DNA of 64,000 nt from a phage, in sequence record PZ445527.1. One strand, written 5' to 3'. Position numbers and translations under genes: made by a program. The notes beneath the pieces are model-generated. The model saw only the letters and a program-made list of their open reading frames with translations, was not told the DNA's origin and did not search any database. Below are positions 3,167-42,187 of this stretch, one piece after another. Every line of letters begins with the position of its first letter. Position 1 is the first letter of the stretch.

Positions 3167-3196
3167 TTTGTTTCCTTCTCATCAATTTATAAAGTA

Positions 3197-3225
3197 ATTA
3201 TACAGAAACTTAGGCATTTTAGCAA
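3197..3225 (-). promoter_or_regulatory. sigma70-type promoter
   Basis: TTGCTA, 17 nt spacer, TATAAT. Confidence 0.6.
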
Positions 3226-3333
3226 ATAAAACTTTTAATTAAAATGCCTAATCCTGTACTAATAGCAATACAAATGATTATAAGTATTGCTACTGCTTGT
3301 ATGACTCGTTTAATGATAACCTCAGCTATATAC

Positions 3334-3855: not shown

Positions 3856-4718
3856 TAAAGGATCCTCTGTACACCACAGCTATTATTTTTGTCAGTGGTA
3901 AATGCTGTGATTTTGCCAGTTTCATCATTAACCTGCGCAACCGTCAACTGCCCGTTGAAAACACCGCCAGTATCAAGATAAACACGGTTTTTATAAAGAA
4001 GTGGGTAAGGTACTCCAGTATGCCCGTGAAACACGAAATCTATCCCTTTAACTTCTGGCACTTCCACCATATATTCTTCTTTAAATCCTGCATAACGCTG
4101 GAAATAGGGGTGTTCCTCAACATTTTTAGACAAGTGGAAGCCTATTTCTTGGATTACATCTCGATCCCATAAATATGGTTCAACATGGTATCCAGGAGGG
4201 TCATGTGGGTCTTCCTTAGCTGCTTCTACTTGTGCAATAAGGTTATCCCATACTGGGGTTTCAACTTCGTTACCACATTCTTTGTACATAAAAGGTACAC
4301 CACCATGAACAACACCATATTTCTTGCCACGATGTTTAACAGTTAGGAATACTGGCATTTTTTCAGCCATGTCTTCGGCAATATTTTTAATGGTATCTGC
4401 ATCTAGTTCATTCATAGCCCACATACCACCGTTATACATCCAGTTAGCCCAATCTCCTACAATCATAAACTGGTCATGATTTCCACGAACGCTACAGAAA
4501 CGTGGATTATACAGGAATTTGGCTAAAACTTGTAGGTTCTGCGTGCCTCGATCAATTAAATCTCCCACGCATACAACGCAATCTTTCTTGCCGTTATAGC
4601 CAGCTAATTGTAGTGCATCTTCTAGCAAATCGTTGCATCCATGAATATCACCAACAAAGAATAAGTTAACATCATCAGGTACTACTAGTGTTTTATGTAC
4701 ATTAAATTCTTTTTTCAT
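3855..4718 (-). CDS. serine/threonine protein phosphatase (PPP family)
   Basis: Motifs GDIHG, GDLIDRG, GNHD as in lambda-type PPP phosphatases; ATG at 4718 sits 2 nt after upstream stop. Confidence 0.8.
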   Translation of the reverse strand: MKKEFNVHKTLVVPDDVNLFFVGDIHGCNDLLEDALQLAGYNGKKDCVVCVGDLIDRGTQNLQVLAKFLYNPRFCSVRGNHDQFMIVGDWANWMYNGGMWAMNELDADTIKNIAEDMAEKMPVFLTVKHRGKKYGVVHGGVPFMYKECGNEVETPVWDNLIAQVEAAKEDPHDPPGYHVEPYLWDRDVIQEIGFHLSKNVEEHPYFQRYAGFKEEYMVEVPEVKGIDFVFHGHTGVPYPLLYKNRVYLDTGGVFNGQLTVAQVNDETGKITAFTTDKNNSCGVQRIL

Positions 4719-15618: not shown

Positions 15619-15692
15619 TGGCAGGGGATATTGGATTTGAACCAATGATCTCGACTTCAAAGGCCGTTGTGCTAACCGTTACACTACTCTCC
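15619..15692 (-). tRNA. tRNA, possibly Gln (anticodon TTG)
   Basis: T-arm ATTGG-TTCAAAT-CCAAT, anticodon loop CTTTGAA, encoded CCA; acceptor stem pairs imperfectly so boundaries and isotype are uncertain. Confidence 0.45.
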
Positions 15693-15784
15693 AATTGTTT
15701 GGCTGGAGTGCCTGATTCAATCCCAGGCACCTTCGGAGTCAGAGGCCGACGACTTGACAATTGATCTACACCTCAAGAATACTA

Positions 15785-16021
15785 TTAACTAGATGCTGGT
15801 TCTGCTGGCTGAGATACAGCAGGCTGTTCTAATGTATCTGGTGCTGATACAGAGAAAAGAGCTTGTAATGCTGCAATATCACGCTCGTAAGTTTCAATAC
15901 GAGTAGTAAGAGTATCTACCATCTGTTTATGATAGGCTAAGTTATTCTGAGATTCATCTCGAAGGGTTTGCAGTTCTGCAAGACGTGTTAACATAATTTC
16001 ACTAATTAAAGCATTACTCAT
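15785..16021 (-). CDS. hypothetical protein
   Basis: 78 aa ORF, helical heptad-like character. Confidence 0.45.
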   Translation of the reverse strand: MSNALISEIMLTRLAELQTLRDESQNNLAYHKQMVDTLTTRIETYERDIAALQALFSVSAPDTLEQPAVSQPAEPASS

Positions 16022-16211
16022 TTGTTTCTCCTAAATTTTCCGGTTCTTCTAAACGTTTGCCTTCATGATCTACTCGAATAACTCCGCATCCTTCGCAAAT
16101 CACAACTGCACCATAACCTTCTTTGACTTCAGCTTCTGTAATCAAACCAGAAAGATCACCAGTATCTCTGCCCCACATATCAATGGAGCATTGTTTGCAG
16201 AAATCAGCCAT
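16014..16211 (-). CDS. small zinc-ribbon-like protein
   Basis: 65 aa with CKQC and CEGC pairs. Confidence 0.45.
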   Translation of the reverse strand: MADFCKQCSIDMWGRDTGDLSGLITEAEVKEGYGAVVICEGCGVIRVDHEGKRLEEPENLGETNE

Positions 16212-16236
16212 ATTTTATTTCCTATTTAAGTTAATT

Positions 16237-16313
16237 TGGGGTGGCTAGTGGAACTCGAATCCACATAGGCCTGATTCACAATCAGGATCATTAACCAATT
16301 ATGATATAGCCAC
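16237..16313 (-). tRNA. tRNA-His (anticodon GTG)
   Basis: Manual fold: acceptor GTGGCTA/TAGCCAC, D-stem TCAT/ATGA, anticodon stem CCTGA/TCAGG with loop TTGTGAA, T-arm GTGGA-TTCGAGT-TCCAC, CCA encoded. Confidence 0.8.
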
Positions 16314-16534
16314 AATTGAAAACTCGCAGGGTTAGCGAAACCATCCTCAATTAGCATGTTCTAGAATACTAATCAAGTTATCTCCTATTGCACGCAGCTC
16401 AAGACGAGTACGAATTTTCAATTGTGGCGGCTCTCAGAAACTCTTCTATTCTAGCCTCAGAAGCTTACCCCCGAACGCATGTCGGGAAAGTCTTTCCAAG
16501 CGCATCAAATAGCACCGTTACACTTTGAGCCATT

Positions 16535-16610
16535 GATGTATCAAGGAATAGAAGGACTTGAACCTTCATGAGTTAGACCATTTAACTCAACCGCTTTTTA
16601 GGGTATATTT
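16535..16610 (-). tRNA. tRNA-like element (unresolved)
   Basis: Perfect T-arm GAAGG-TTCAAGT-CCTTC on minus strand but acceptor and anticodon arms could not be paired by eye. Confidence 0.25.
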
Positions 16611-16679
16611 CTAGGAGTGGATGTTCCTAGTAAACCTATTCGGCAGTCCCGTCTACCAATTCCGGCATATTCCAAGATT

Positions 16680-16774
16680 TGGAGGTAGGTAAGGGGATCG
16701 AACCATTACACCGTATCACTACGGTCAACCGATTTCAAGTCGGAGTCCATCGCCAGCCGTTGGATTGACCTACC
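16680..16774 (-). tRNA. tRNA-Ser (anticodon TGA), class II
   Basis: Acceptor GGTAGGT/ACCTACC perfect, anticodon loop CTTGAAA, long variable arm, CCA encoded. Confidence 0.75.
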
Positions 16775-16786
16775 TTATAAATTGTT

Positions 16787-16871
16787 TGGTGGGTTAGGAG
16801 AGACTCGAACTCTCACGCACTTAAGCAAGGGCTTCTAAGACCCTCGTGGCTACCAATTACACCACTAACCC
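16787..16871 (-). tRNA. tRNA-Leu (anticodon TAG), class II
   Basis: Acceptor GGGTTAG/CTAACCC, anticodon stem AGGGT/GCCCT with loop CTTAGAA, long variable arm, T-arm GAGAG-TTCGAGT-CTCTC, CCA. Confidence 0.75.
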
Positions 16872-16877
16872 CTAATT

Positions 16878-16952
16878 TGGTGGACAGTAGGAGAGTCGAA
16901 CTCCTCACTCCTGAGTGCAAGTCAGGTATTTTCCCAGATAAACTAACCGCCC
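16878..16952 (-). tRNA. tRNA-Ala (anticodon TGC)
   Basis: Acceptor GGGCGGT with G3-U70 wobble, anticodon stem CCTGA/TCAGG with loop CTTGCAC, T-arm AGGAG-TTCGACT-CTCCT, CCA. Confidence 0.75.
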
Positions 16953-17191
16953 AAATTCTTTAATTTACTAAGGCTATTAGCTCGGCGTAACTACAGCACC
17001 TTCGCTTCAAGCGGAAGGAACCGCGTCATCTCGCAAACCCAATACACTATTCAGTTGCCGCTGAATCTAGTGGACTAATCTAGAACTTCTCCCGAGTCGT
17101 AGGGATCGTGCTTTTTGGCAGCCAGTCCTAGGTCGAGCTAATACCTTAGTGAATTATGATGAGGATTTCTCCCATATCAATTTATATAAAT

Positions 17192-17220
17192 ATTATAACA
17201 AGAAATTAATCATCAAGCAA
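17192..17220 (-). promoter_or_regulatory. sigma70-type promoter upstream of non-coding leader and tRNA-Ala/Leu/Ser
   Basis: TTGCTT, 17 nt spacer, TATAAT, then conserved leader ATATTTATATAAATTGA. Confidence 0.65.
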
Positions 17221-17321
17221 TTGAGTTTTTCTTGAAATTGGTAGCGGGTTCCAGTACTGCCCTGGACTTACTTAGCTTATGAGACTAAGAAGAACTCTAT
17301 GCCTTCCACCCGCAATTGTTT

Positions 17322-17400
17322 GGTTATTCTAGACAGGATTCGAACCTGTTATCACTTGTGCGGACTTACGAGAACCATTCTTTCACTCGAATCGAACGAG
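17322..17400 (-). tRNA. tRNA-like element (unresolved)
   Basis: Perfect T-arm ACAGG-TTCGAAT-CCTGT followed by ACCA; remaining arms not confidently paired. Confidence 0.3.
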
Positions 17401-17567
17401 CTTCTGCCCTAGCCAAGCTGGTTTCCCCATCAACCACGCTAGAATGTTTGATTGTTTTCAGTGCAAGAGTCCGAGTCTTGGACACGACCGTTTCGCAAGT
17501 ACATAGGCAGCTTATCATGAGTCAGCACTTCCGAATTGCTAGCCCCGTGTTCTGCACTGAAATTTTA

Positions 17568-17915
17568 TTAGTTTAACCGTAAAGTATTATCTAATTCACC
17601 ATTAATTGTTCGGCATTCCTCTGGAATTGCTGGTGTGGCCTTGTATTCCCACCACTCAGCACCATCATATTCCCCACGTTCTAGCCAAGTTCCGTCGGCA
17701 AACCATACATTACCATAAAGTAATTGTCCACCGTATCCAGAATCATACTCAAAGTCTAGGTTATCAAGAAAATCCTCAATATCTTCTTCTGTATAGCCTA
17801 AAGGTAATACCCAAACTTTTTTATCCCCATAATACCCGAATTCTATTTTAATACACTTAATTTTAGAATTGGTATTTTTTAAGGCAAGTAACAACTCTTC
17901 TTTAGCATTACGCAT
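17568..17915 (-). CDS. hypothetical protein
   Basis: 115 aa ORF between tRNA groups. Confidence 0.5.
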   Translation of the reverse strand: MRNAKEELLLALKNTNSKIKCIKIEFGYYGDKKVWVLPLGYTEEDIEDFLDNLDFEYDSGYGGQLLYGNVWFADGTWLERGEYDGAEWWEYKATPAIPEECRTINGELDNTLRLN

Positions 17916-17940
17916 AGTATATTCTCATACTGAATTAATT

Positions 17941-18017
17941 TGGCGCGACTGATGGGATTTGAACCCACATTCCCTCCCGTGATAGGGGAGTACCATTACC
18001 AAGCCAGCCACGGTCGC
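17941..18017 (-). tRNA. tRNA with unusual anticodon loop CTATCAC (anticodon ATC, isotype uncertain)
   Basis: Acceptor GCGACCG/CAGTCGC, anticodon stem CTCCC/GGGAG, T-arm GTGGG-TTCAAAT-CCCAT, CCA encoded. Confidence 0.6.
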
Positions 18018-18026
18018 ATAATTTAT

Positions 18027-18212
18027 TTACTCAGCTTTGAGTTTTTCAATAGCTGCATTAAGTTCTTTAAGAAACTCTTTTCGTACATTAAGACGATTGA
18101 GACTTACTAGTATATCATGTTTAAGTTCTTCGATGTATTTCTTCTCAACTTCAATATTGTTGATAGTGCTATCACGATGAACTTCTAGCTGCGCAATCAC
18201 ATTCTTGGACAT
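18027..18212 (-). CDS. hypothetical protein
   Basis: 61 aa ORF, charged helical. Confidence 0.4.
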   Translation of the reverse strand: MSKNVIAQLEVHRDSTINNIEVEKKYIEELKHDILVSLNRLNVRKEFLKELNAAIEKLKAE

Positions 18213-18314
18213 GCTTGTTTCCTCAGTTATTAATGAAAATGGTATCTGTGGCTGAATTAGATGTCAGCAATGATAGCTGGTTGGCTACCGGTTTACTTAA
18301 CTCTACACAGAATT

Positions 18315-18397
18315 TGGCGGGCCGTGTAGGATTCGAACCTACGTTGTCTTTCGACACGGATTAACAATCCGCCGCCAAACCGCTTGGCTAACGACCC
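18315..18397 (-). tRNA. tRNA-Asn-like (anticodon GTT) with extended variable arm
   Basis: Acceptor GGGTCGT/ACGGCCC, D-stem GCCA/TGGC, anticodon stem GCGGA/TCCGT loop TTGTTAA, 13-nt variable hairpin, T-arm GTAGG-TTCGAAT-CCTAC, CCA. Confidence 0.6.
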
Positions 18398-18552
18398 TAA
18401 AAAATTTATATTGCTGACTAGGGTTTTCACCTAGACGGAGTTAGCACCGTAGCGTGTAGCGGCATACCTCTCCAAACCGTGCCTCATCTTTCAATTACGG
18501 AGACAGTGTTCCTACGCGTGCCTGAATTGATTTAACAATTCTTTCAGCAAAT

Positions 18553-18628
18553 TGGACGACCGCATGAGGATTGAACTCACATAAAAAGGATTTGCAATCC
18601 TTCGCCTAAGCCATTCAGCCAACGGTCG
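18553..18628 (-). tRNA. tRNA-Cys (anticodon GCA)
   Basis: Acceptor CGACCGT/GCGGTCG, anticodon stem AAGGA/TCCTT loop TTGCAAA, T-arm GTGAG-TTCAATC-CTCAT, CCA. Confidence 0.75.
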
Positions 18629-18806
18629 ATTTATCTTGTTTTTCGAGATCTTCAAACTCTAAATCATTGAAGTTCCCTAGAGTACGGGTATAGAACCCAT
18701 CCCCTGCGTCATAGCCTGATTTACCACAATCACACATTTTAAATTCGCGCAGGTGTGTGAAAACATGTTCAGAACCACAACACTTAAATCTAACTAATCG
18801 TTTCAT
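18615..18806 (-). CDS. small Cys-containing protein
   Basis: 63 aa; CCGSEH and CDCG motifs; 3-prime end overlaps tRNA-Cys by about 14 nt; promoter at 18835..18863. Confidence 0.4.
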   Translation of the reverse strand: MKRLVRFKCCGSEHVFTHLREFKMCDCGKSGYDAGDGFYTRTLGNFNDLEFEDLEKQDKSTVG

Positions 18807-18834
18807 TAGCTTCTCCAGTTCAATTTATGTAATT

Positions 18835-18863
18835 ATTATATAGAACTTTTGGGAACTAAGCAA
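18835..18863 (-). promoter_or_regulatory. sigma70-type promoter
   Basis: TTGCTT, 17 nt spacer, TATAAT. Confidence 0.6.
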
Positions 18864-19145
18864 CTACATTTTTTAAGAATTTGATGCCTTTCTTTTTCTT
18901 CTTATATTTCCACGTTAATGGATTCTGTCGATTATGAACGCTTGAGATCTTTGTCTCGTCAAAGTTCTTCAATATCATGTAATCACAAGATAATTGTTCT
19001 AGTGGAATGTGATCACCGTCAAAAGCGTATACATAAGGCTGTTGACTAGCACGATAATGATAGACTTTGTTAATTCTACGTTTCAGCGACTTATCCGCGC
19101 AGTAAATAAAGAAGTTTTAAGGGTGCATCAGCATCTCCTTCAATT

Positions 19146-19229
19146 TGGTGCATCGTGCTGGATTTGAACCACCAACCCCGAAGGGCACGGATTTACAGAC
19201 CGCTGCAATAGCCATTCTGCCAACGATGC
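19146..19229 (-). tRNA. tRNA-Tyr (anticodon GTA), class II
   Basis: Acceptor GCATCGT/ACGATGC, D-stem GCAG/TTGC, anticodon stem GCGGT/TCCGT loop CTGTAAA, long variable arm, CCA. Confidence 0.8.
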
Positions 19230-19357
19230 ACATTTAAAAGTATTCAAATACTAGTTTAAACACTTTTAAATATGTTTCCAAATTAGATAACTATTATACC
19301 AAGTTTTAAGGCACTGAGCAAGTCAGATTTTGAAGAACTTGCTCAGTGCTGTATTAG

Positions 19358-19642
19358 TTAGTCGAACTTAGGAGTGACAGATAAGGAGAACGGAAGTTCA
19401 AAAACTTCTTCACCCTCATTACTAACGGTAACTACACGACCTTTAAGTTCAGACATTAAAATATCAATATCAGCTTTTGCATCTGGAGCCATGCCAGCTT
19501 CAATACATTTAGCTTTAACTTCCGGTAAAAGCTCTACGTTATAGAGATAGAGCCACTCAATCTCACCTTCCCAGTCTTCCCAGTCTTCCCAGGATTTGCA
19601 GATTGCACTTTCAATACCAGTTGCTACAACACGATTTTGCAT
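19358..19642 (-). CDS. hypothetical acidic protein
   Basis: 94 aa with WEDWEDWEGEIEW repeat; promoter 19673..19702 upstream. Confidence 0.5.
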   Translation of the reverse strand: MQNRVVATGIESAICKSWEDWEDWEGEIEWLYLYNVELLPEVKAKCIEAGMAPDAKADIDILMSELKGRVVTVSNEGEEVFELPFSLSVTPKFD

Positions 19643-19672
19643 TCGTTAACTCCTTCATCAATTTATATAACT

Positions 19673-19702
19673 ATTATACCAGAAATTTAAAGCAAAAGGC
19701 AA
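19673..19702 (-). promoter_or_regulatory. sigma70-type promoter
   Basis: TATAAT with TTGCCT 18 nt upstream. Confidence 0.5.
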
Positions 19703-19732
19703 GTACATTTTTAAAAATTCTGTTTGGAGGAG

Positions 19733-19939
19733 CTAAACTCCAGATTCTTCTGCCAAGTCTAGACTAATAAGAGTTATAGCCATAATTGCTGCACCGTGTT
19801 CTTTTTCTCCGGTGTTTTTAGCAGAGTCTATAATATCCTTAATCTGTTCGTAATAACTTTTTACTTCTTGTTCAATGCCTGCCTCGGCTATCATGCCTTT
19901 AGTCATGAGTCGTTGCATGGTAATTTCAGTATTAGCCAT
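19733..19939 (-). CDS. hypothetical protein
   Basis: 68 aa ORF. Confidence 0.45.
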   Translation of the reverse strand: MANTEITMQRLMTKGMIAEAGIEQEVKSYYEQIKDIIDSAKNTGEKEHGAAIMAITLISLDLAEESGV

Positions 19940-20114
19940 GTTGTTTCTCCAGTTTCATTTTTAATAGTTTACAAATGAAATCAACGTCTTCATCCGTGCC
20001 TAGATCTCTATCTTCAAGGGTTGCCTTGAAATTTTTTGTTAGTTCCATAAGAATAACTTCCCTGGAACGACGTGTTGGCGGGGGTGGATGTCTATACATC
20101 TTATTTCCTTAATT

Positions 20115-20189
20115 TGGTGGGTCGGAGGAGAATCTAACTCCTACTCGTTAGCTTATGAGGCCACCGCTTTAACTTTAAGCTACCGACCC
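20115..20189 (-). tRNA. tRNA-Met or Ile2 (anticodon CAT)
   Basis: Acceptor GGGTCGG/CCGACCC perfect, D-stem GCTT/AAGC, anticodon loop CTCATAA, T-arm AGGAG-TTAGATT-CTCCT, CCA. Confidence 0.75.
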
Positions 20190-20195
20190 TATGTT

Positions 20196-20284
20196 TGGCG
20201 GAAGAAGTGGGAATCGAACCCACAAGGCTATATTTCAAACCGACAGATTAGCAATCTGCTGCAATACCGTTATGCTATTCTTCC
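20196..20284 (-). tRNA. tRNA-Ser (anticodon GCT), class II
   Basis: Acceptor GGAAGAA/TTCTTCC, anticodon stem GCAGA/TCTGT loop TTGCTAA, long variable arm, T-arm GTGGG-TTCGATT-CCCAC, CCA. Confidence 0.8.
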
Positions 20285-20298
20285 GAATTTATAAATAT

Positions 20299-20327
20299 AT
20301 TATATTAGAAATTTAGCTTCATAGCAA
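20299..20327 (-). promoter_or_regulatory. sigma70-type promoter directly upstream of tRNA-Ser(GCT)/tRNA-Met
   Basis: TTGCTA, 17 nt spacer, TATAAT, with the tRNA 5-prime end about 15 nt downstream. Confidence 0.65.
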
Positions 20328-20823
20328 GAAAATTTTTCAAGTTTTCGGTAGACATCTCATCCACATCTACAGGAGAAACAAATCCATTTAATTGTCTAGC
20401 AAATTTTTTACCAGCAGGATCATTATCCCCAACAGCTACCAATTTAAAAGGTAGTAATTTCAATTGCTTTAATAGCGCTTTTCCTGGAGAAGAACCCAAC
20501 ATTGCCAAGGCTGGATAACCAGCGTTATGTAACGCAACTGCCTTAAATACAGATTCAGCAATCAATACCACTTTTTCATCTCCATTGAGAGTTTCTAGTC
20601 CCCATACACACTGTGTAGTAGAATAAGTAAAATATCTAGCTTCAAAGGGGCACTTACCATGACCTTTTGGAGCAGAAGGATTATAAGTCTGATAGCCTCT
20701 CAACATCCCAGAGAAGTCATACAATGGGACTGTTAGCCATCCTTCCGGGCTTAACCAGCAATGATATTTATCTGTATCAAACCCTCTAGATAAGAGATGT
20801 TCTGTTAGTTCATCAACAGTCAT
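20305..20823 (-). CDS. hypothetical protein (possible Toprim-like fold)
   Basis: 172 aa; VAVGDNDPAGKKF resembles a DxD Toprim motif, assignment tentative. Confidence 0.5.
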   Translation of the reverse strand: MTVDELTEHLLSRGFDTDKYHCWLSPEGWLTVPLYDFSGMLRGYQTYNPSAPKGHGKCPFEARYFTYSTTQCVWGLETLNGDEKVVLIAESVFKAVALHNAGYPALAMLGSSPGKALLKQLKLLPFKLVAVGDNDPAGKKFARQLNGFVSPVDVDEMSTENLKNFLAMKLNF

Positions 20824-20860
20824 ATTTGATCCCCTAGTTAGTTGTATAAATACATTATAC

Positions 20861-20894
20861 AGAAAAGCCCTGCGCTCTCCAGTGAACGCAGGGC
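20861..20894 (-). terminator. rho-independent terminator
   Basis: Stem GCCCTGCG...CGCAGGGC followed by T-run on minus strand, after SPFH gene stop. Confidence 0.55.
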
Positions 20895-20919
20895 TTACTT
20901 CGAATATTACGTGTGGGTA

Positions 20920-21867
20920 TTACTTGTTACGCATATCCATAATCATTTGGCCATCGTAACCAGTGCCAACCACAGTCTGCGGTACACCACCTTGATACTT
21001 CTGAGCACGAATCATTTCAACTTCTAGTTGCTTCCAGCGAATCATCTCAGGAGTAATGGTACGTTGCAGAGCGGCGTTAGCTTCAGCTTCTTTCTTAGCT
21101 GCGTACAGTTTAGCATCTGCATCACGTTCGTTTGCAATAGCTTGGTTGTTACGAGCTTCACGATCTGCTTCTGCTTGTTTAACCTTCTGCTGTGCTTCTT
21201 GTTCAACACGAGCCAACTCAGCTTTCGCAGCATTAACTTGTTCTTCACGAACTTTGGTATTCTGTACCTGTTCCATGATTACAGGCGGCAAAGTAATATC
21301 CTGAAGGAACACTTGCTTAACTGTGTAACCATAAGGGCGTGCATACTCTTCAACTTCCTGTTGAATTGCAGTTTGCAATTGAGCCTGAATTTTAGCATCA
21401 AACAAATCTTGTGCTTTAGGTACAGACTTACCAAACTCACGAATAGTAGACAGTAATTTTTCAGTTACATACTTGTCTAGTGCCTGATCCTGAGTACCTG
21501 CATTAATACGGTTAATCGGTGCCTTAGAACCATCAAACTGCAACATAACAGTCAGGTCAACAGTGGATTTAAACTTATCCTGACTAGGAACCTGAAGTTT
21601 ATCTAATTTTACAGCAATATCTTTTGTACTGAAAGTATCGAAAGATGCAAACGGGTTTACAATATGGAAACCAGGTAATACTGGATTAGGGTCTACTTTA
21701 CCAAGAAATGTTTGGGTTTTAACCGTACCATCAGAAACAATAGTATATGAATTAAAAGCTAGGATTAAACCTGCTAAACCAACTACAGCACCAATACCCC
21801 AACGTTTAATAGTACGGATTACTTTCTGCTCAGAAGTCAGTTCTTTCATATTTTTAGTAGCAAACAT
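20920..21867 (-). CDS. SPFH/band-7 (HflK/C, stomatin-like) domain protein
   Basis: 315 aa; N-terminal TM helix, SPFH-like core, long Ala/Gln/Glu-rich coiled-coil C-terminus. Confidence 0.65.
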   Translation of the reverse strand: MFATKNMKELTSEQKVIRTIKRWGIGAVVGLAGLILAFNSYTIVSDGTVKTQTFLGKVDPNPVLPGFHIVNPFASFDTFSTKDIAVKLDKLQVPSQDKFKSTVDLTVMLQFDGSKAPINRINAGTQDQALDKYVTEKLLSTIREFGKSVPKAQDLFDAKIQAQLQTAIQQEVEEYARPYGYTVKQVFLQDITLPPVIMEQVQNTKVREEQVNAAKAELARVEQEAQQKVKQAEADREARNNQAIANERDADAKLYAAKKEAEANAALQRTITPEMIRWKQLEVEMIRAQKYQGGVPQTVVGTGYDGQMIMDMRNK

Positions 21868-21901
21868 ATATTTCCTTTGTTTTAGTTACAGTTAATAAAA
21901 T

Positions 21902-21976
21902 TGGCCGAGGTGACAGGATTCGAACCTGCATAAAGGAATTTAGAAGACTCCTGCCTCTCCCTTAGACTACACCCCG
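21902..21976 (-). tRNA. tRNA-Arg (anticodon TCT)
   Basis: Acceptor CGGGGTG/CACCTCG, D-stem GTCT/AGGC, anticodon stem GGAGT/ATTCC loop CTTCTAA, T-arm GCAGG-TTCGAAT-CCTGT, CCA. Confidence 0.8.
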
Positions 21977-23798: not shown

Positions 23799-24620
23799 TT
23801 AAAATAGATCATATTCTAATCTATTGGGATTTTCTCGGTATCCATAAGACGTAAGAGTACCCCTCATATACTCTGCGTCAACAGGATTAGATGTTACTAG
23901 AACCACTTTTAGTGGTCTTTGACCTAAAAATAGTATATGATCTAATAAGTCTTTTCCTTGTACCTCTGGATCTCCTAAATCTGAGTCCATAAATAAATAG
24001 GATCCTGTGAAACTAAATATATCTGATAGTTCCAGCGCACCTATAACTGTACGACAAATAATGGACATTTCAGGTAGATCTCTAACATCGTCTATTAGAA
24101 TATTGGTCTGCTTCCCAATTTCTGCATTACATAAACCATTTACTAGTTTTTCTCTTTCCCCTTTAGCTTGTTCGAAAGTGGTGAAGCCAGGAGATACGAA
24201 AAACTTTCCACCTAATGTAATGCTATACACAAAACCCTCTGGGAGTAGTTCTACACCTACGGTTTTATTAGTATTAATCCTATTTAACTTAAAATTTGTC
24301 TCTCTTAGATTAATAATTCTGTTATCCCACGGTATAGTATTTATATGGTCGATCATATAAGGCGGCTCTTCACCATAATGGAGCAACCACGCTATTCGGT
24401 GTCCATAAATAATTGTGGGTTTATTATCTAAGAGCAAACTAACTCTGATGTACCCATCAGAGTTCTTACTACATATTTCTCTCCCAGCATATAGGGTGTG
24501 CCAAGTTTTATTCTTGTATTTATTAGGCTTATAAAATAATTTACCGGTATAAGGATTATACTCTATAATTTCTCGAATATAATCTATATATGGTAGTATT
24601 TGTTTTTGTAATTTACCCAT
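23799..24620 (-). CDS. HNH homing endonuclease (HNH_3-like)
   Basis: 273 aa; GHRIAWLLHYGEEPPYMIDHINTIPWDNRIINLR; own promoter at 24651..24679. Confidence 0.7.
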   Translation of the reverse strand: MGKLQKQILPYIDYIREIIEYNPYTGKLFYKPNKYKNKTWHTLYAGREICSKNSDGYIRVSLLLDNKPTIIYGHRIAWLLHYGEEPPYMIDHINTIPWDNRIINLRETNFKLNRINTNKTVGVELLPEGFVYSITLGGKFFVSPGFTTFEQAKGEREKLVNGLCNAEIGKQTNILIDDVRDLPEMSIICRTVIGALELSDIFSFTGSYLFMDSDLGDPEVQGKDLLDHILFLGQRPLKVVLVTSNPVDAEYMRGTLTSYGYRENPNRLEYDLF

Positions 24621-27834: not shown

Positions 27835-27863
27835 ATTATACGGTAATTTGAAGCGTTTAGCAA
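27835..27863 (-). promoter_or_regulatory. sigma70-type promoter
   Basis: TTGCTA, 17 nt spacer, TATAAT. Confidence 0.6.
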
Positions 27864-27871
27864 ATGAATTT

Positions 27872-28321
27872 TTAATTTATTAACTGTAAGCTTCTTTTAA
27901 TTTCAGACCTTACCTGCATCAAAAGAACTCCTAAAGTATTGTCCCCGATGCCTCGGCAAACACCCCAATATGTATCTCCCCAGGTATTTCCTTCGATCAA
28001 AGTTGCATTTTTTGTTGCTAACAGTTTGTCCCTCAAATCAGGGATTGCAAACTTTAACCGTAAAAGCTCTAGCATTACGTCATCTTTTACCTTATCCCAG
28101 TCAGAGCGCAGAGTTAATTTACGTCCCCTACGTTTGGCAACTCCTGCATTTAGGGAGCGCAGTACATGAGCTACATCATCTTTTTGGTCGGATTTCATAG
28201 CCTGAAAAGCATGTTCTACAGTATCAGCATGCCATATCTCATTTAGATATTCGAAAGTAATTGGTGATAAATAAAAGTTAGATAAAAAACTATAAGTACC
28301 TTTAAATTCAGTAATCTTCAT
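27872..28321 (-). CDS. NADAR (YbiA-like, DUF1768) domain protein
   Basis: 149 aa; FYLSPITFEY...EHAFQAMK...GNTWGDTYWG resembles the NADAR/YbiA family. Confidence 0.6.
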   Translation of the reverse strand: MKITEFKGTYSFLSNFYLSPITFEYLNEIWHADTVEHAFQAMKSDQKDDVAHVLRSLNAGVAKRRGRKLTLRSDWDKVKDDVMLELLRLKFAIPDLRDKLLATKNATLIEGNTWGDTYWGVCRGIGDNTLGVLLMQVRSEIKRSLQLIN

Positions 28322-28602
28322 TTTTTACGCCCCGCATCTTTAGCCTCCTCGGCTGTATAGATATACTGATAAGCCCCTTTGGAGTAGGCTGGAGCAGTAC
28401 ACATTTTCTTACGCTCAATCTCTTCTTGAGCTTTTCTTTCGCGTTCAGCTAATTCTTCATCCAGATAAACTAAACGTTGTTCTGGAGGAGGTGGAAGACG
28501 TGTTTCTGGCTCACCAATATTAGCCTTTCTTATTTGACGAGGTGATTGTGCACGTTTTCTCAACGGTTTAAATCCTAATGAATTTGAGTTATAAATTCGC
28601 AT
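28318..28602 (-). CDS. hypothetical protein
   Basis: 94 aa ORF; promoter 28630..28658. Confidence 0.45.
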   Translation of the reverse strand: MRIYNSNSLGFKPLRKRAQSPRQIRKANIGEPETRLPPPPEQRLVYLDEELAERERKAQEEIERKKMCTAPAYSKGAYQYIYTAEEAKDAGRKK

Positions 28603-28629: not shown

Positions 28630-28658
28630 ATTATACTAAATTAGAGGGCTTTAAGCAA
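28630..28658 (-). promoter_or_regulatory. sigma70-type promoter
   Basis: TTGCTT, 17 nt spacer, TATAAT. Confidence 0.6.
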
Positions 28659-28678: not shown

Positions 28679-29155
28679 TCACATCTCGGCAAGTTCTTGC
28701 TCAGTAATAACAGTATTACATAATGCGTCAACTTCTTCATTACCTCTAATACCTGAGTGCCCTTTAACCTTAATAAAGGTAGGGTTAGTATTATGAAAAT
28801 TAATATACTGTTGGGTTAGTTTAAATGCTTCTTGCCATAGTTCTAAATTGAGAGGAGCTTCACCATCTCCCTTCTTCCAGCCTTTCTTCTGCCAAGACCA
28901 CATCCAGCTTTCCATACCATTTTTACAGTATGCAGAATCAGTGTAGATTATAACTGGACGTTTATCATTCTTAGTAGCCCAGCGCAGAACTTCAACAATA
29001 GCTGTAAGTTCCATTTCATTGTTTGTGGTTTTTGGACTGAAACCCGACTTAGAACCCAAACGTTCGTCATTAGGATCATAAACTACGAAACCCCAAGCAC
29101 CTAAACCAGGATTACCTTTACAAGCCCCATCTGTATATATATGAAATGTACTCAT
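28679..29155 (-). CDS. rnhA: ribonuclease H
   Basis: 158 aa; IYTDGAC...EMELTAI...YTDSAY...HSG...EVD typical RNase HI catalytic motifs. Confidence 0.85.
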   Translation of the reverse strand: MSTFHIYTDGACKGNPGLGAWGFVVYDPNDERLGSKSGFSPKTTNNEMELTAIVEVLRWATKNDKRPVIIYTDSAYCKNGMESWMWSWQKKGWKKGDGEAPLNLELWQEAFKLTQQYINFHNTNPTFIKVKGHSGIRGNEEVDALCNTVITEQELAEM

Positions 29156-29694
29156 TTATTAAGTTCCTCTAAAATAGGGGGTGGTTTTGTGGAATCAAAA
29201 GTTTCTATAACAGCGTTTTTACCGTGTAACTGTAGACGAAGTTCATTGGCACATTGAATGGCGGATTCTAGGTCTTTGTACTCAAAATAACCACCATATA
29301 CTGACTTTTTATCGGAGTCTCTAACATGTACTTGCCATTTCTGATTTTGCCTATTCCAGCTAATTCCTAGATAACCAGATTTACTTCTAGTGGTTTTATT
29401 TCTCTGATTCTCTTGGTAATTAGATTTCCTGAGATTAATCCATCTATTATCATCTCGTATGCGGTTTATGTGGTCTACCATTTCCGGTAGATAGCCTTCC
29501 ATATAGAGAAATGCTAGCTGATGCGCATAATATGGATTTTTATCCACGGATATAGTTATATATCCGTCTTTTCTTAGATGACCAGCAATACTTCCTATTT
29601 TTCCGTTTCTACCCCTGACTCCCGTCCTTCTAGTAAATATTCCGGTATCGGGGTTATAATCGAATAGTTCTTTTAATCTTTCTTGTGTGATCAT
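29152..29694 (-). CDS. HNH homing endonuclease (HNH plus AP2-like)
   Basis: 180 aa; N-terminus MITQERLKELFDYNPDTGIFT shared with ORFs at 5368 and 55085. Confidence 0.8.
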   Translation of the reverse strand: MITQERLKELFDYNPDTGIFTRRTGVRGRNGKIGSIAGHLRKDGYITISVDKNPYYAHQLAFLYMEGYLPEMVDHINRIRDDNRWINLRKSNYQENQRNKTTRSKSGYLGISWNRQNQKWQVHVRDSDKKSVYGGYFEYKDLESAIQCANELRLQLHGKNAVIETFDSTKPPPILEELNK

Positions 29695-30074
29695 TCATCT
29701 AACCATCCTATGTCTATACTAAGTAATGCTTTTATTCCTGTAATACCTGTACCATAGGTATTATATCGAATAGCACTTCTGCTCTTTACTTCAAGTATAT
29801 TTTCATACTCTGTATTTTCTAGAATTTCTGTAGATATACCTAAATATCCTGATTGATCTTCCTCGTCCCAACCCATATCTTCTAGAAGATTTAGACGTAA
29901 TTCTACCTTCTCATCTCCATTGCCTACAGAGTAGTAGTCTTCTAAAGTCCTGAATTTAGAAGTGATAGAGTCTAGTATTAATAATATCTGTTCCTTAGTA
30001 ATAGTTTCTTTATCACCCTGTAAGTAATTGGAGTAATTCAGAAGGGCTTGTTCTAATTCAATTTCTTTACTCAT
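29691..30074 (-). CDS. hypothetical acidic protein
   Basis: 127 aa ORF. Confidence 0.5.
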   Translation of the reverse strand: MSKEIELEQALLNYSNYLQGDKETITKEQILLILDSITSKFRTLEDYYSVGNGDEKVELRLNLLEDMGWDEEDQSGYLGISTEILENTEYENILEVKSRSAIRYNTYGTGITGIKALLSIDIGWLDE

Positions 30075-32755: not shown

Positions 32756-33262
32756 TTATAAACTATCAAGCTCCAATAGTTTAGCATCACGCCATTCTAT
32801 AGCATCCTCTAATTCTTTAAATGTTTTTGTATATTTTACGCCTTTACGAGCTATCTGGACTTGATATGATCCACTAGCTTTTTGATGAATATTTTTAATA
32901 CCTAGCTTATTGTCTTTATGCGCCCCGACATTCTTTCCGTTACTGAATCTATCAGAAGCTACTAGGTTAATAGCTCTATTATCATGTCGTATTCTATTAT
33001 CGTGGTCTACTTCAGGTGGCAGATACCCATGAATTTTAGCAAAGATTACCCTATGGGCTAAGTAGGGGTATCCTTTAATATTTAATACTATATATCCTGT
33101 AGATTTATCTAAGGAGCCTGCTGGTTTTCCGGCATATTTGGTATTAAATGTTTTATTATCTCTAGGTCTATGAGTCAATATTCCAGTATATGGATCATAA
33201 TCAAATAATTTAGCTACCTCTAGATGATCTTCTAATGTTTTTGACATAATTATAATTTCCAA
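32756..33262 (-). CDS. HNH homing endonuclease
   Basis: 168 aa; AHRVIFAKIHGYLPPEVDHDNRIRHDNRAINL; sits between nrdA and nrdB. Confidence 0.75.
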   Translation of the reverse strand: MEIIIMSKTLEDHLEVAKLFDYDPYTGILTHRPRDNKTFNTKYAGKPAGSLDKSTGYIVLNIKGYPYLAHRVIFAKIHGYLPPEVDHDNRIRHDNRAINLVASDRFSNGKNVGAHKDNKLGIKNIHQKASGSYQVQIARKGVKYTKTFKELEDAIEWRDAKLLELDSL

Positions 33263-33311: not shown

Positions 33312-36300
33312 TTATAAGGTGCAGCCACCTGAAGAACATCCTGTAGTTTCTCCAGCTCCTCCACCATTCGCAGTGTTAAAGTTAGCATAATACCAGGTTT
33401 TTATACCATACTTAACCGCAGTCATAAAGTCACGAACTACTACTGGGCCAGGGATGATTTCATTCTCGAATTTAGAGTAATCATAATACATCTGGAAACT
33501 TGATGACTGACTCAAGAATTTTTGGTAAACGGCGTTCCACTTGATCCACTCAATACGATCTACATCATAGGCCAGTTTATAGCTCATGAGAGTATCCCAA
33601 TCAGTTGCACCTGGGGCAATTGCAATTACTTTATTCACTGCACTACCCTTGATAGATACAATCTTACGAGGTGGTTCAATAGAGTTAGTAACGCCTAACA
33701 GAACAGAGGAACTTTCTCCCGGCATCTGCGCAGTCAGAACAGAGTTACGCATACCGTATTTCAGAATGTCTGCACGCAGAGATTCCCAATCCATTTCTAG
33801 ACCTACGGATACCAGCTCATCAACAGTTTTCTTATACGTGTCGATTACCAGAATTCCTTTGGATGGTTTAGTACGATTAAACCATTCACATGCACCTTGT
33901 TCTTTAGCCAGACGTACAGAGGCTTTATGTAGGAAGTAAGACAGTTTTTCAGCTTCACGATGAATCCAGTTACGTGCTTCAACGCCTTCATAAGCCAAAC
34001 CTTCCGCCGCCATTGCACCTGCTGCGTTCATCAGACCAATACCAACATTACGACGTTTCTTAGCCGTATATTCCATAGTTGGGAACGGATAATCCTGAAT
34101 TTCAATGATGGTATCAACGAATTTCAGGAGGATGTAGCAAGTTTTCTCCCACTCAGCCAGAGATTCCATGCGTCCTAGTACAACACCACCTAAGTTACAC
34201 AGAGATACTTCACCAATATCCTCTGGCTTCATTTGATCAAGCTGCTCTTTTGTCTTATACAGCTCTGTGATATGATGGAACGGGCGTGTAGGCTGAGTAA
34301 TTTCTACACAGTTACCCGCTAAAATGCCATTAAATACACCTAAGTTTAATTTAGGTTCTGTAAAGCAATAAGTATCACTAATACGACCAGTAAACTCAAC
34401 GTTAGTTACAGTTACAAAACGGGTTGCGTCTCTATTGGGGCGTGTTAGGTTTAAGAGTTTCTCTTTATCCAAAGAGAGTCCTAAATCTTTAAGTTTCCAG
34501 AAGCCACTACTCCCCACAATAAGCCTACTAGTCTCCTTGCAGTGGTATAGTTTACTAGTACCAGTACCATCTGGTAACTCGTGGTCACCTTCTTTGCGTC
34601 CTAAAATAATCTTGCTAGTAACCCCCAATTCTAGTAACAAATCCTTCACTTTACTTAGAAAATCAGGCTCTGCCGAAGCAACCACAATACTAGGAGTTGT
34701 GCCATTTTTCTGTATGCAGCCATCTGCATCTAAATATCCCTCTAACCATTTGATACGGCTATCAATAGTATACTCTGGGCCAGGTACAAAATACTTCGGC
34801 ATTAAATCAGACTTAACAATATAGCTCAGTCTACCTGTGCTGTCCAGTAATCCACTTCCCTGAATTTCTGCGTCAATTTTATCCACTAATGGTAGTTTGC
34901 CACCTTTTTCATAGAAGTACAGCTTAGGTTCTCCATGTCTTCCATAAGTTCCATCTCCAGTGAAGAAACCGTTAGTATAAGGAGATTTTAGTACCATATT
35001 TCCATGATCTACAATAGGATTACTAAATTTAGGCATTTTCATACCTACTTGCAAGTCTACTGCTCGTACCTCTTCTAGCCCCTGTTTGAAAGAGGTACGA
35101 CGATCCTCTCTGACATATTTGGGCTGGTGGTAGAACTTATGATAAAGAGTAGATTCAATAGTAGATCCATCAGAGAATGTGATTTTTATCAACTCCTGAG
35201 CTTCCCCAGTTTTAGTAGGGATAACTGTTGACCATTCTTGTCCGTTCCAAATCTCTACTTCTTTACCAACTAAATCAATAATCTCTATGTTACCATTTTT
35301 GGTTAAAATTTTTGTTTCTGGAGCTACACAAAGGTTTGTCATACGGATTGGATCAAGGAAGTTACCGTGACGATTAGATTCCCCGATGTGGTGCGCATAC
35401 ATACGTCCTGTTTCCATTCGGATACGTAGCCAAGTATCTAGGATTTCTTTTGCAGAGACTTTAGGAGCTGCTGGAACTGTTTTTCCTTCGTGGTCGATCT
35501 TTGTAAGAGATGCCACACGTTTCTCCGCTGCCACGTAGATTTCTTCAAATTTAGCCTCGTCATCACTATAAAACGCTTCATGAACTTCTGGAGCATAGAA
35601 GTATGACATTAGCGTAATATCTTCATTTTTCAGATAACGTTTTAACAAAAGATTGTTGAAGCTCAGAGAATAATCCATCTTATCAATTTTATTCTCGTCT
35701 GTAGCACGTTGTTGCTTAACCTGCATCAACTGAATGATTTCAGGGTCAAAGTATGGATAAGACACTGTAGCAGAACCACCACGAGTTTGCTGAGTATTGG
35801 CCTTTACTGAGCGATCAATGTGTCGATAATATGGCAGTTTTCCGGAATGCGGGAATGCCCCATTTCGCACCGGATCAGCAATTGATCTGCTTTCAAGATG
35901 ATACCCGATTCCCGCTCTGGCTGCAACCATTTTGAAGACGATGTGCTCGGCGGTGTCGATTGAATCCAACGTGTCAGTGGAATCCACGAGGCAGCAACTA
36001 GCAAATCCACGGTCACTAGAGCGCAGACCAACCAGTGGCGGCGTAGGAACGTTGATTTTGTGGAGCGACATTGCGTTGTAGAGGTCGATTGCATCTAGAA
36101 TTGTCCAGTTAGGTTGAGATAACATCGCCATTGCCATACCCATGTAGGCAAACTGCGGAGTTTCATAAATTTCACCAGTGGCTATGTTGCGGCGGGAATA
36201 CTTATCAAAGAACTGCTTCAGTCCACCACTAGTAAAAAGACGGTCACGATCATGGTCGATAACCTGATTCAGAGCTTCAAATTGCTCATCGGTAATCCAT

Positions 36301-36659
36301 GCACTCATGTCTTCCCATGCACCTACGCTAACCATGTGGTCATGGAAGAAGCGCAGAGAAGGTGGTTCGAAGGAATCATAAAGGCGTTTACGCATTTGCG
36401 CAAGACGTAATTCCTTTGCTGGCACATCGTATGCTGGGTTATCTTTGATAAGGCTTTCAGCAGCCTTAATTAATGCGTCCATCAGAGTGTCGGAATCTAC
36501 AACCCCTTTAGGCAGAGTTTTTTGAGCAGCCATAGTAATGGCTGACCAACTTACATCAACTGTTTTGCAACCATACTCTGCCCAACCATTGAGTTTTTCA
36601 GGAGCAAAGTCTTCTACAGTACCGTCACGTTTAATTACTTTTTCAATGCGATGGCTCAT
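33312..36659 (-). CDS. nrdA: ribonucleotide reductase large subunit with in-frame intein
   Basis: ORF 33312..36764; start placed at MSHRIEKVIKRDG Met by comparison with NrdA N-termini; class Ia R1 motifs throughout; about 340 extra residues inserted at the NLC active-site motif. Confidence 0.9.
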   Translation of the reverse strand: MSHRIEKVIKRDGTVEDFAPEKLNGWAEYGCKTVDVSWSAITMAAQKTLPKGVVDSDTLMDALIKAAESLIKDNPAYDVPAKELRLAQMRKRLYDSFEPPSLRFFHDHMVSVGAWEDMSAWITDEQFEALNQVIDHDRDRLFTSGGLKQFFDKYSRRNIATGEIYETPQFAYMGMAMAMLSQPNWTILDAIDLYNAMSLHKINVPTPPLVGLRSSDRGFASCCLVDSTDTLDSIDTAEHIVFKMVAARAGIGYHLESRSIADPVRNGAFPHSGKLPYYRHIDRSVKANTQQTRGGSATVSYPYFDPEIIQLMQVKQQRATDENKIDKMDYSLSFNNLLLKRYLKNEDITLMSYFYAPEVHEAFYSDDEAKFEEIYVAAEKRVASLTKIDHEGKTVPAAPKVSAKEILDTWLRIRMETGRMYAHHIGESNRHGNFLDPIRMTNLCVAPETKILTKNGNIEIIDLVGKEVEIWNGQEWSTVIPTKTGEAQELIKITFSDGSTIESTLYHKFYHQPKYVREDRRTSFKQGLEEVRAVDLQVGMKMPKFSNPIVDHGNMVLKSPYTNGFFTGDGTYGRHGEPKLYFYEKGGKLPLVDKIDAEIQGSGLLDSTGRLSYIVKSDLMPKYFVPGPEYTIDSRIKWLEGYLDADGCIQKNGTTPSIVVASAEPDFLSKVKDLLLELGVTSKIILGRKEGDHELPDGTGTSKLYHCKETSRLIVGSSGFWKLKDLGLSLDKEKLLNLTRPNRDATRFVTVTNVEFTGRISDTYCFTEPKLNLGVFNGILAGNCVEITQPTRPFHHITELYKTKEQLDQMKPEDIGEVSLCNLGGVVLGRMESLAEWEKTCYILLKFVDTIIEIQDYPFPTMEYTAKKRRNVGIGLMNAAGAMAAEGLAYEGVEARNWIHREAEKLSYFLHKASVRLAKEQGACEWFNRTKPSKGILVIDTYKKTVDELVSVGLEMDWESLRADILKYGMRNSVLTAQMPGESSSVLLGVTNSIEPPRKIVSIKGSAVNKVIAIAPGATDWDTLMSYKLAYDVDRIEWIKWNAVYQKFLSQSSSFQMYYDYSKFENEIIPGPVVVRDFMTAVKYGIKTWYYANFNTANGGGAGETTGCSSGGCTL
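34311..35330 (-). mobile_element. intein with LAGLIDADG homing endonuclease inside nrdA
   Basis: Insert begins with Cys (CVAPET), ends GILAGN followed by +1 Cys of extein NL-CVEITQP; contains GFFTGDGTYG and LEGYLDADGC motifs. Confidence 0.8.
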
Positions 36660-36803
36660 TTGGTTTTCCTTTTTATAGTTATCAGGATTTAAGGAATATT
36701 CTACATTATTATTGGTCATTAGGCAAATAAAATTTTCTGATAGAAAAGGCCCGAGTATTTTCATACCCAGGCCCTCTGTGTTGTCAGTCTAGTTTTTGGC
36801 CAC

Positions 36804-41347: not shown

Positions 41348-42187
41348 GTGAGGAACTGTACAGTGCGTAGATTAATTATTATTAGCGGTGCAGGTTTGAG
41401 CGTTGAAAGTGGTGTACGAGCCTTCCGTACTGATACTGCTAGTGGTAAAGCATTGTGGGATGATTATGACTTAGAAGAGGTATGTAATATTCATGCCTTT
41501 CGTGGTAATTTTTATCATAAAACCCATATGTTTTACAACAAGCGTCGTGAAGAGCTAAAAACTATTGAACCCAATCTTGCGCATCTTCGTATTGGTGAGT
41601 GGTATAAACAATACCCAGGTCAAGTAGTAAACTTGACTACTAACGTCGATGACCTTATTGAGCGTGCTGGCGTTCCGCATAGTGACATTCTACATATTCA
41701 TGGGTATTTAAAAGAGGTTGTTGTAGCTGACAGCTACAATAGCAGTAATAAACGAGTTATTGATGTTGGGTATAGCTCTATTGACCCAGATGATTATAAA
41801 TGGGTTAAACCTAATGTAATCTTCTTTGGTGAGCATGCTCCAGCGTACGCAGAAATGTACAATATTTTTGATGGTATTACCAGTCAAGATATGATCGTTG
41901 TAGTTGGTTGCTCTAACCAAGTAATTAACTTCTACTGGGAATTATTCCCTGTTCTTAATTTGACTGCTGCCAAATTAATGGTAGTTAACTACTATGATAG
42001 TGCCCTAGCGACAGAGCCAGGCTATCAAGGTATGACTCGTAGTGAGATGTACCAGCTGGAAGAACGCGGTATCCCTTACTGGAGTAAAGGGGCTGTAGAT
42101 GCCTTCAGTGACCCTGATTTTATTACTCGTGTAGAAGCTCATCTAGAGGGTAGACCTTATATGCCGGGGAAACAAATATGTCCATAA
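41348..42187 (+). CDS. Sir2-like NAD-dependent protein (deacetylase/ADP-ribosyltransferase family)
   Basis: 279 aa; Sir2-type Rossmann motif GAGLSVESGVRAFR, VIFFGE and VVVGCS segments; no obvious Cys4 zinc module. Confidence 0.65.
   Translation: MRNCTVRRLIIISGAGLSVESGVRAFRTDTASGKALWDDYDLEEVCNIHAFRGNFYHKTHMFYNKRREELKTIEPNLAHLRIGEWYKQYPGQVVNLTTNVDDLIERAGVPHSDILHIHGYLKEVVVADSYNSSNKRVIDVGYSSIDPDDYKWVKPNVIFFGEHAPAYAEMYNIFDGITSQDMIVVVGCSNQVINFYWELFPVLNLTAAKLMVVNYYDSALATEPGYQGMTRSEMYQLEERGIPYWSKGAVDAFSDPDFITRVEAHLEGRPYMPGKQICP

Follow-up and report, generated by a model that had tools for sequence, protein, structure and literature searches.

DarT1 ADP-ribosylates guanine in DNA and stops phage replication, and NADAR proteins hydrolyse guanine-ADP-ribose (PMC11543638, PMC11125620). 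Phage-encoded erasers of DNA ADP-ribosylation explain the escape of some phages from DarTG toxin-antitoxin defence, and this escape bears on phage host range and on the choice of therapeutic phages. Johannesman et al. (Nat Commun 2025;16:1598; PMC11825919; preprint PMC11257639) gave the name AdfN^Bas32, AdfN standing for anti-DarT factor NADAR, to the NADAR protein of Bas32 and Bas33, two phages that they describe as "Markadamsvirinae closely related to T5". According to their report, ectopic expression of AdfN^Bas32 in E. coli neutralised DarT1 toxicity without phage infection and, on DarTG1 hosts, allowed three unrelated DarTG1-sensitive phages (RB69, T5 and Bas25) to plaque at full titre again. 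T5 was reported as a DarTG1-sensitive phage that AdfN^Bas32 rescues in trans, whereas on DarTG2 its plaquing was left unchanged, without rescue. The main text of PMC11825919 describes AdfN^Bas32 through ectopic expression only, and we found in it no purified-enzyme assay, catalytic mutant or Bas32/Bas33 deletion. A literature search for AdfN yielded no later paper with an in vitro test or a native-phage deletion of the T5-type protein, and the HIDEN-SEQ preprint covers the adfN of T4 only.

We analyzed a 64,000-nucleotide stretch of phage DNA (sequence record PZ445527.1), referred to here as the window, which belongs to a T5-like phage (Demerecviridae, Markadamsvirinae, Tequintavirus). Against the phage collection, a 24-kb query reached at best ~93% identity over ~83% of its length, and the window genome was not identical to any record there. 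The ORF listing of the window includes an ORF at 27872..28321 with an ATG start and 149 codons, encoding a protein of 149 aa. It lies on the minus strand, which the preliminary description of this DNA had not given. That description had seen hallmarks of the NADAR/YbiA family in the ORF, and the motifs it quoted are present in the translation (SNFYLSPITF, VEHAFQAMK and EGNTWGDTYWG). The profile search against NADAR/DUF1768 that it had proposed placed the protein in NADAR, well over the curated cut-off: Pfam NADAR PF08719 (DUF1768) matched residues 9-142, corresponding to profile positions 9-163 of 163, with 79 bits and an E-value of 6.3e-22 against a gathering score of 35.1. The protein was also matched by phrog_1017, a family of unknown function (E 8e-45), and by E. 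coli YbiA (PDB 2b3w; E 2.8e-15), and ~1035 homologues at E<=1e-5 were retrieved from a database of 5.8 billion proteins. All four features of the NADAR superfamily were found, namely the profile score, the fold, the catalytic residues and the ADP-ribose-binding residues. These results confirm that the NADAR match is far above chance level and place the 149-aa protein in the NADAR superfamily.

We compared the window protein with the deposited NADAR proteins of the two published phages. By BLASTP, it was identical at all 149 residues to bas33_0070 (QXV80081.1) from Bas33 HildyBeyeler and at 147 of 149 residues to bas32_0066 (QXV80247.1) from Bas32 IrisVonRoten, the differences being T9A and K104E (locus tags of the form bas33_xxxx belong to HildyBeyeler and bas32_xxxx to IrisVonRoten). 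The genes compared occupy positions 4001-4450 of the extracted HildyBeyeler locus and 1202-1651 of the extracted IrisVonRoten locus. Neither of the two variable positions is among the mapped catalytic or ADP-ribose-binding residues. Judged by sequence identity, the window protein and AdfN^Bas32 are the same protein. PMC11825919 states that the NADAR proteins of the two phages are identical, with which the two substitutions separating the deposited Bas32 and Bas33 entries are slightly at odds, and the tested clone is named after Bas32, whose deposited sequence is the one with the T9A and K104E differences. With tblastn, the protein was detected at an identity of at least 95% in 96 phage records, 68 of which reached at least 99%. 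Public annotation of the gene is inconsistent and mostly misleading, most GenBank records still naming it a swarming motility protein, a GTP cyclohydrolase II, an N-glycosidase or a hypothetical protein. GenBank PV844355.1 labels an identical gene "antitoxin-like enzyme", and the same gene also appears as "swarming motility protein", "swarming motility protein YbiA", "GTP cyclohydrolase II", "N-glycosidase", "DUF1768", "NADAR family protein" and "hypothetical protein".

To map the active site, we used an alignment of 40 homologues sharing 46-59% identity. Invariant positions in this alignment were F6, L13, S14, N15, F16, E36, Q40, K43, M83, K90, F91, L100, T103, L108, E110, W114, D116, W119, G120, G126, N128, L130, G131, L134 and R138, and the nearly invariant ones included H37, K63, G66, W75 and K79. 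When the alignment profile was searched against solved structures, only two matched, namely YbiA (2b3w; E 1.8e-36) and the ADP-ribose-bound NADAR of Phytophthora nicotianae (PnNADAR, 8bau; E 1.5e-19). Residue roles were taken from Schuller et al. 2023 (PMC11543638), in which the numbering is two lower than the chain index of 8bau. E36 corresponds to the catalytic Glu (PnNADAR E43, E. coli C7 E88), K43 to the catalytic Lys (K50 and K95, respectively) and E110 to the acidic catalytic position (E125 in PnNADAR, D171 in E. coli C7). K63 aligns with PnNADAR K75 and E. coli C7 K115, and K79 with PnNADAR R93. Among the positions that bind the ADP-ribose pyrophosphate, R79 of PnNADAR is matched by R67, as part of the pair G66/R67 (PnNADAR G78/R79), while W75, D116 and W119 match W89, D130 and W133. 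The predicted active site of the window NADAR is complete. A separate 117-aa variant (P0002; longest contig 109,387 bp) is a form of this NADAR from which residues 51-82 are deleted in frame; as this removes K63, R67 and W75, the variant is probably inactive.

The AlphaFold2 model built from the same alignment had a pLDDT of 97.3 and a pTM of 0.90. Searching the PDB with Foldseek, we recovered YbiA (2b3w) with a TM score of 0.82, 36% identity and a probability of 1.00, and ADP-ribose-bound PnNADAR (8bau) with a TM score of 0.75 and a probability of 1.00. The DarG1-type NADAR of G. lovleyi (8bat) was only a weak match (TM 0.48, E 1.1). The NADAR fold was defined here as an α-helical core between two small β-sheets, as in YbiA. 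The core begins at about residue 9, leaving out the N-terminal extension typical of DarT1-associated NADARs. The window protein is a minimal, single-domain, Glu-type, YbiA-like NADAR.

This class separates the window protein from DarG1-like and T4-like NADARs. It shares with DarG1 (E. coli C7; G. lovleyi 8bat) the superfamily and the reported neutralisation of DarT1 in uninfected cells, whereas DarG1 carries a β1-β2-α1 N-terminal extension and a catalytic Asp (D171), where the window protein has no extension and Glu110. No darT1 gene or ART domain was found among the genes flanking the window NADAR, which makes it an orphan gene. Membership of the DarG1 group was rejected on the lack of darT1 and of the N-terminal extension, on Glu in place of Asp and on the TM score of 0.48. 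AdfN^T4 (T4 gp30.3; PF08010, Phage_30_3) is, like the window protein, a phage-encoded orphan NADAR that counters DarTG1. However, T4-type NADARs form a different clade in which His replaces the conserved Glu and which is closest to DarG1-like NADARs. In addition, AdfN^T4 has no neutralising effect on DarT1 in the absence of infection and performs poorly outside T-even phages, whereas the Bas32-form protein needs no other phage factor. The Pfam search gave no match between the window NADAR and PF08010, and position 110 is Glu rather than His, so that T4-type AdfN membership was also rejected. The DS-32 anti-phage NADAR (NF053876) was discarded as a further candidate, scoring 45 bits against a cut-off of 240.

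Taken together, the gene at 27872..28321 is very probably the AdfN of T5-like phages, a guanine-ADP-ribose DNA glycohydrolase that counters DarT1, an assignment that draws on the ORF, the Pfam match, the identity to Bas33 and Bas32, the AlphaFold and Foldseek results and the published function. The reported phenotypes, combined with the intact catalytic site, support a mechanism in which the enzyme strips guanine-linked ADP-ribose from phage DNA as it replicates. In the mechanism we propose, a DarTG1 host would sense infection and the DarT1 toxin would ADP-ribosylate guanines of the phage DNA, blocking replication. AdfN would then cleave the N-glycosidic bond between ADP-ribose and guanine in the DNA, the adducts would disappear and replication could continue. 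T5-type AdfN would, in this scheme, hydrolyse guanine-ADP-ribose itself and would protect its carrier phages in nature. The preliminary description had proposed the gene as a candidate anti-defence factor, and the DarT1 neutralisation and DarTG1 plaquing reported in PMC11825919 for an identical or near-identical protein bear this out; the rescue test with DarT-type toxins that it had called for was already reported there for the Bas32-type protein, with DarT1 rescued. Its broader wording, reversal of DarT-type modification, stands for DarT1, which modifies guanine, but not for the thymidine-modifying DarTG2, against which T5 was not rescued. Its activity is directed specifically at the guanine ADP-ribosylation that DarT1 carries out. 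The counter-defence reading of this gene is not new, having appeared in print in 2024/2025.

Of the other readings, the one that survives best widens the substrate range. The protein may be a broader de-ADP-ribosylase whose natural targets extend beyond DarT1 guanine adducts to cytidine-ADP-ribose, ADP-ribosylated RNA or soluble ADP-ribose-derived immune signals, DarT1 being one of several defences countered. Glu-type NADAR/YbiA enzymes remove cytidine-ADP-ribose from DNA and RNA, whereas DarG1- and T4-type enzymes do not (PMC12945103), and the window protein is itself Glu-type and YbiA-like. According to the argument of Iyer et al. 2022, phage NADARs target mostly low-molecular-weight ADP-ribose derivatives, and NAD/ADP-ribose biology is prominent in this phage, as Sir2 and cREC genes are also present in the window. 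However, the direct data on the Bas32-type protein are confined to DarT1, with rescue, and DarT2, without rescue, and the wider spectrum would supplement the anti-DarT1 explanation rather than replace it. We regard this reading as improbable. As a more speculative proposal, which we hold only tentatively and think somewhat doubtful, T5-type AdfN might act as a broad eraser of base ADP-ribosylation, on guanine and cytidine and in both DNA and RNA, that Salmonella and E. coli T5-like phages keep against ADP-ribosylating defences beyond DarTG1, some of them undiscovered, and the rnh/T5.090 area might be a small hotspot of independent NADAR capture.

We rate a housekeeping role slightly lower still. 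The protein would then be a YbiA-type N-glycosidase that destroys reactive intermediates of the riboflavin pathway, and its anti-DarT1 effect would be a side activity of overexpression. YbiA and the window protein share a minimal NADAR core, the absence of an N-terminal extension and Glu at the catalytic acid position, E110 being a YbiA-family signature (PMC11543638), and YbiA is the best match among solved structures by sequence, profile and fold. Many of the GenBank names ("N-glycosidase", "GTP cyclohydrolase II", "swarming motility protein YbiA") also imply such a role. Against the corresponding family model, TIGR02464 "riboflavin biosynthesis intermediates N-glycosidase", the window protein reaches 66.8 bits, short of the curated cut-off of 73.7. 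The protein stands alone without a fusion, and no riboflavin genes (ribA/ribD) were seen among the neighbours examined. YbiA is encoded by a LexA-regulated chromosomal gene, whereas the window NADAR is a phage accessory gene, and its patchy presence and absence among near-identical phages resembles a counter-defence gene rather than a metabolic one. The phenotypes also diverge: E. coli YbiA hydrolyses guanine-ADP-ribose in vitro yet gives no DarT1 protection in vivo (PMC11125620), whereas full rescue is reported for the Bas32-type protein (PMC11825919). Since YbiA is the nearest characterised relative, family resemblance alone would not predict the phenotype. The YbiA/TIGR02464 equivalog was rejected as the main function on the sub-cut-off score, the missing riboflavin context and the failure of YbiA in DarT1 rescue, and we consider the housekeeping reading very unlikely. 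That the protein is instead a stoichiometric antitoxin mimic that binds or blocks DarT1 non-enzymatically is a negligible prospect: other phage anti-DarT factors, namely AdfA and the ICP1 antitoxin mimic (PMC11481870), are described as targeting the toxin directly and the main text of PMC11825919 showed us no catalytic mutant of the T5-type protein, but the full set of catalytic and ADP-ribose-binding residues is under strong constraint, the N-terminal extension of DarT1-associated NADARs is missing, AdfN^T4 is reported to require enzymatic activity (Johannesman et al.), and the very different Bas32-type and Bas60-type NADARs are reported to yield the same phenotype (PMC11825919).

Returning to the anti-DarT1 glycohydrolase, we examined the locus in which its gene lies. 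The gene order around it matches T5.087-T5.096, with the exonuclease, small ORFs, the T5.089 homologue (DUF7022), the NADAR gene, the T5.090 homologue, rnh, thy, frd, nrdB and nrdA. This block is early in T5, which agrees with the T5 annotation. The AdfN^Bas32 locus likewise has rnh, the T5.090 homologue, NADAR and the T5.089 homologue, and its phage falls in the same group, Tequintavirus. Immediately upstream of the NADAR gene is a gene for a 94-aa protein (28318..28602, minus strand), recognised from its ORF, its PHROG match (phrog_4593, function unknown) and the comparison with T5 as the T5.090 homologue. The TGA of this gene overlaps the NADAR ATG by 4 bp (ATGA, 28318-28321), and a G-rich stretch lies 8-12 nt upstream of the NADAR ATG, an arrangement that suggests translational coupling of NADAR to the 94-aa gene. 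No Pfam family matches the 94-aa protein, whose sequence includes a PPPP motif along with a helix-like segment rich in Lys and Glu; it is conserved in all T5-like loci examined, and one record names it "DksA C4-type domain-containing protein".

Two promoter-like sites, both on the minus strand, flank the module. The first (28630..28658; TTGCTT, 17 nt, TATAAT, preceded by an A/T-rich tract) lies ahead of the 94-aa gene and is conserved with T5: ~100 bp around it align without visible mismatch to the annotated promoter region before T5.090 (NC_005859). It is probably the start of the NADAR-carrying transcript. The second (27835..27863; TTGCTA, 17 nt, TATAAT; 10 of 12 consensus matches) lies directly 3' of the NADAR stop codon, in a region almost identical to the stretch of T5 that carries the annotation "promoter P-H 207". 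This P-H207 homologue would drive the T5.089 homologue (DUF7022) and mark the 3' boundary of the cassette. A generic promoter scan returned 10 promoter-like sites against 10.7 in shuffled sequence, showing no excess, and the site at 28630..28658 fell under its consensus threshold. As the scan did no better than shuffled sequence, our promoter calls rest on conservation with annotated T5 promoters. The placement of NADAR among early genes in the preliminary description holds, given a block homologous to T5.087-T5.096 and the P-H207 homologue immediately downstream. These features point to early expression of the NADAR gene, and AdfN would accordingly be expected early in infection as a product of the T5 early block, made downstream of a conserved T5-type promoter and probably coupled to translation of the T5.090 homologue.

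We then delimited the segment that varies among T5-like phages. Aligning the window and Bas33 with the empty sites of NBSal003 and T5_ev219 revealed a variable cassette of ~520 bp (27873..28392), made up of the NADAR gene together with an alternative 3' end of the gene upstream; T5-like phages that lack NADAR carry ~75 bp in place of the cassette. Its limits are the NADAR stop codon (27873) on one side and, on the other, a point ~22 codons before the end of the upstream gene (~28390). The C-terminal ~22 residues of the 94-aa protein (28318 to ~28390) co-vary with NADAR, reading ...YSKGAYQYIYTAEEAKDAGRKK in carriers and ...YNKGAYQYVSDAEQAKMVGR in empty-site phages. In T5, nothing but P-H207 lies between T5.090 and T5.089, and the absence of NADAR at this locus fits the reported DarTG1 sensitivity of T5.

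A 3.7-kb query around the NADAR gene matched 446 phage records, nearly all of them Salmonella/Escherichia T5-like phages. With a 1.5-kb query, 94 of 443 T5-like records covered at least 80% of the query, and most of the other records shown matched in two pieces that together span about two-thirds of the query and lack ~450 bp. In a comparison of four carriers, the NADAR gene was 97-98% identical at the nucleotide level, while the identity of neighbouring genes ranged from 80% to 100%. Its GC content is 37.3%, and that of the window is 38.7%. Recent foreign acquisition was rejected, as the GC content is near that of the window, the carriers share 97-98% identity within mosaic flanks and nothing indicates a recent arrival from beyond the T5-like phage gene pool. 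Judged from these alignments, the NADAR gene is an established accessory module that moves by recombination among T5-like phages. From this distribution, we predict that module-carrying T5-like phages, about one in five records, plaque on DarTG1 hosts, and that T5 and its empty-site relatives do not. The anti-DarTG role of the gene at 27872..28321 being already established in the literature, the practical gain is better annotation. What is added here is its accessory status, its position between the T5.090 and T5.089 homologues, the 4-bp overlap, the flanking conserved T5 early promoters and the assignment to the Glu-type, YbiA-like class.

A different NADAR (P0005), 60% identical, occurs in Salmonella phage vB_SenS_UTK0009 (Epseptimavirus), where its place is one gene away, with rnh and the T5.090 homologue on either side (2788-3237, minus strand, in the extracted locus). 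UTK0009 was the sole carrier of this type in the phage collection, and a second NADAR type as a common alternative allele was rejected on that ground. Its position gives a faint hint of independent NADAR capture in the same neighbourhood, a possible hotspot.

Between thyA and rnh, the window has an extra HNH endonuclease gene and a phrog_26840 gene, whereas in Bas33 a hypothetical gene of 282 bp is all that lies there. The extra HNH gene is the first of two HNH_3 endonuclease genes among the minus-strand genes at 29152-29694, 29691-30074 and 32756-33262, the phrog_26840 gene being adjacent to it. This pattern points to mobile-endonuclease mosaicism beside the NADAR locus. Farther along, the minus-strand gene at 33312-36764 encodes a ribonucleotide reductase large subunit of 1150 aa, with a LAGLIDADG_3 domain inside the RNR barrel domain; T5 NrdA has 811 aa, and the product is probably an intein-containing NrdA.

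Several NAD/ADP-ribose-related genes occur together in this phage, namely NADAR, cREC and Sir2. The 273-aa protein encoded at 23799-24620 (minus strand) has a cREC_REC (cyclic-phosphate processing receiver) domain with an embedded HNH_3, and the Bas33 gene at the corresponding position is annotated as intein-containing. Like NADAR, cREC was predicted by Iyer et al. 2022 to process ADP-ribose derivatives. The Sir2-family protein (PF02146, E 2e-24) is encoded on the plus strand at 41348-42187 and is probably the counterpart of T5.102. Finally, 12 tRNA genes are clustered on the minus strand at 15619-21976, among which ARAGORN called a tRNA-Asp (17941-18017) with the unusual anticodon ATC.
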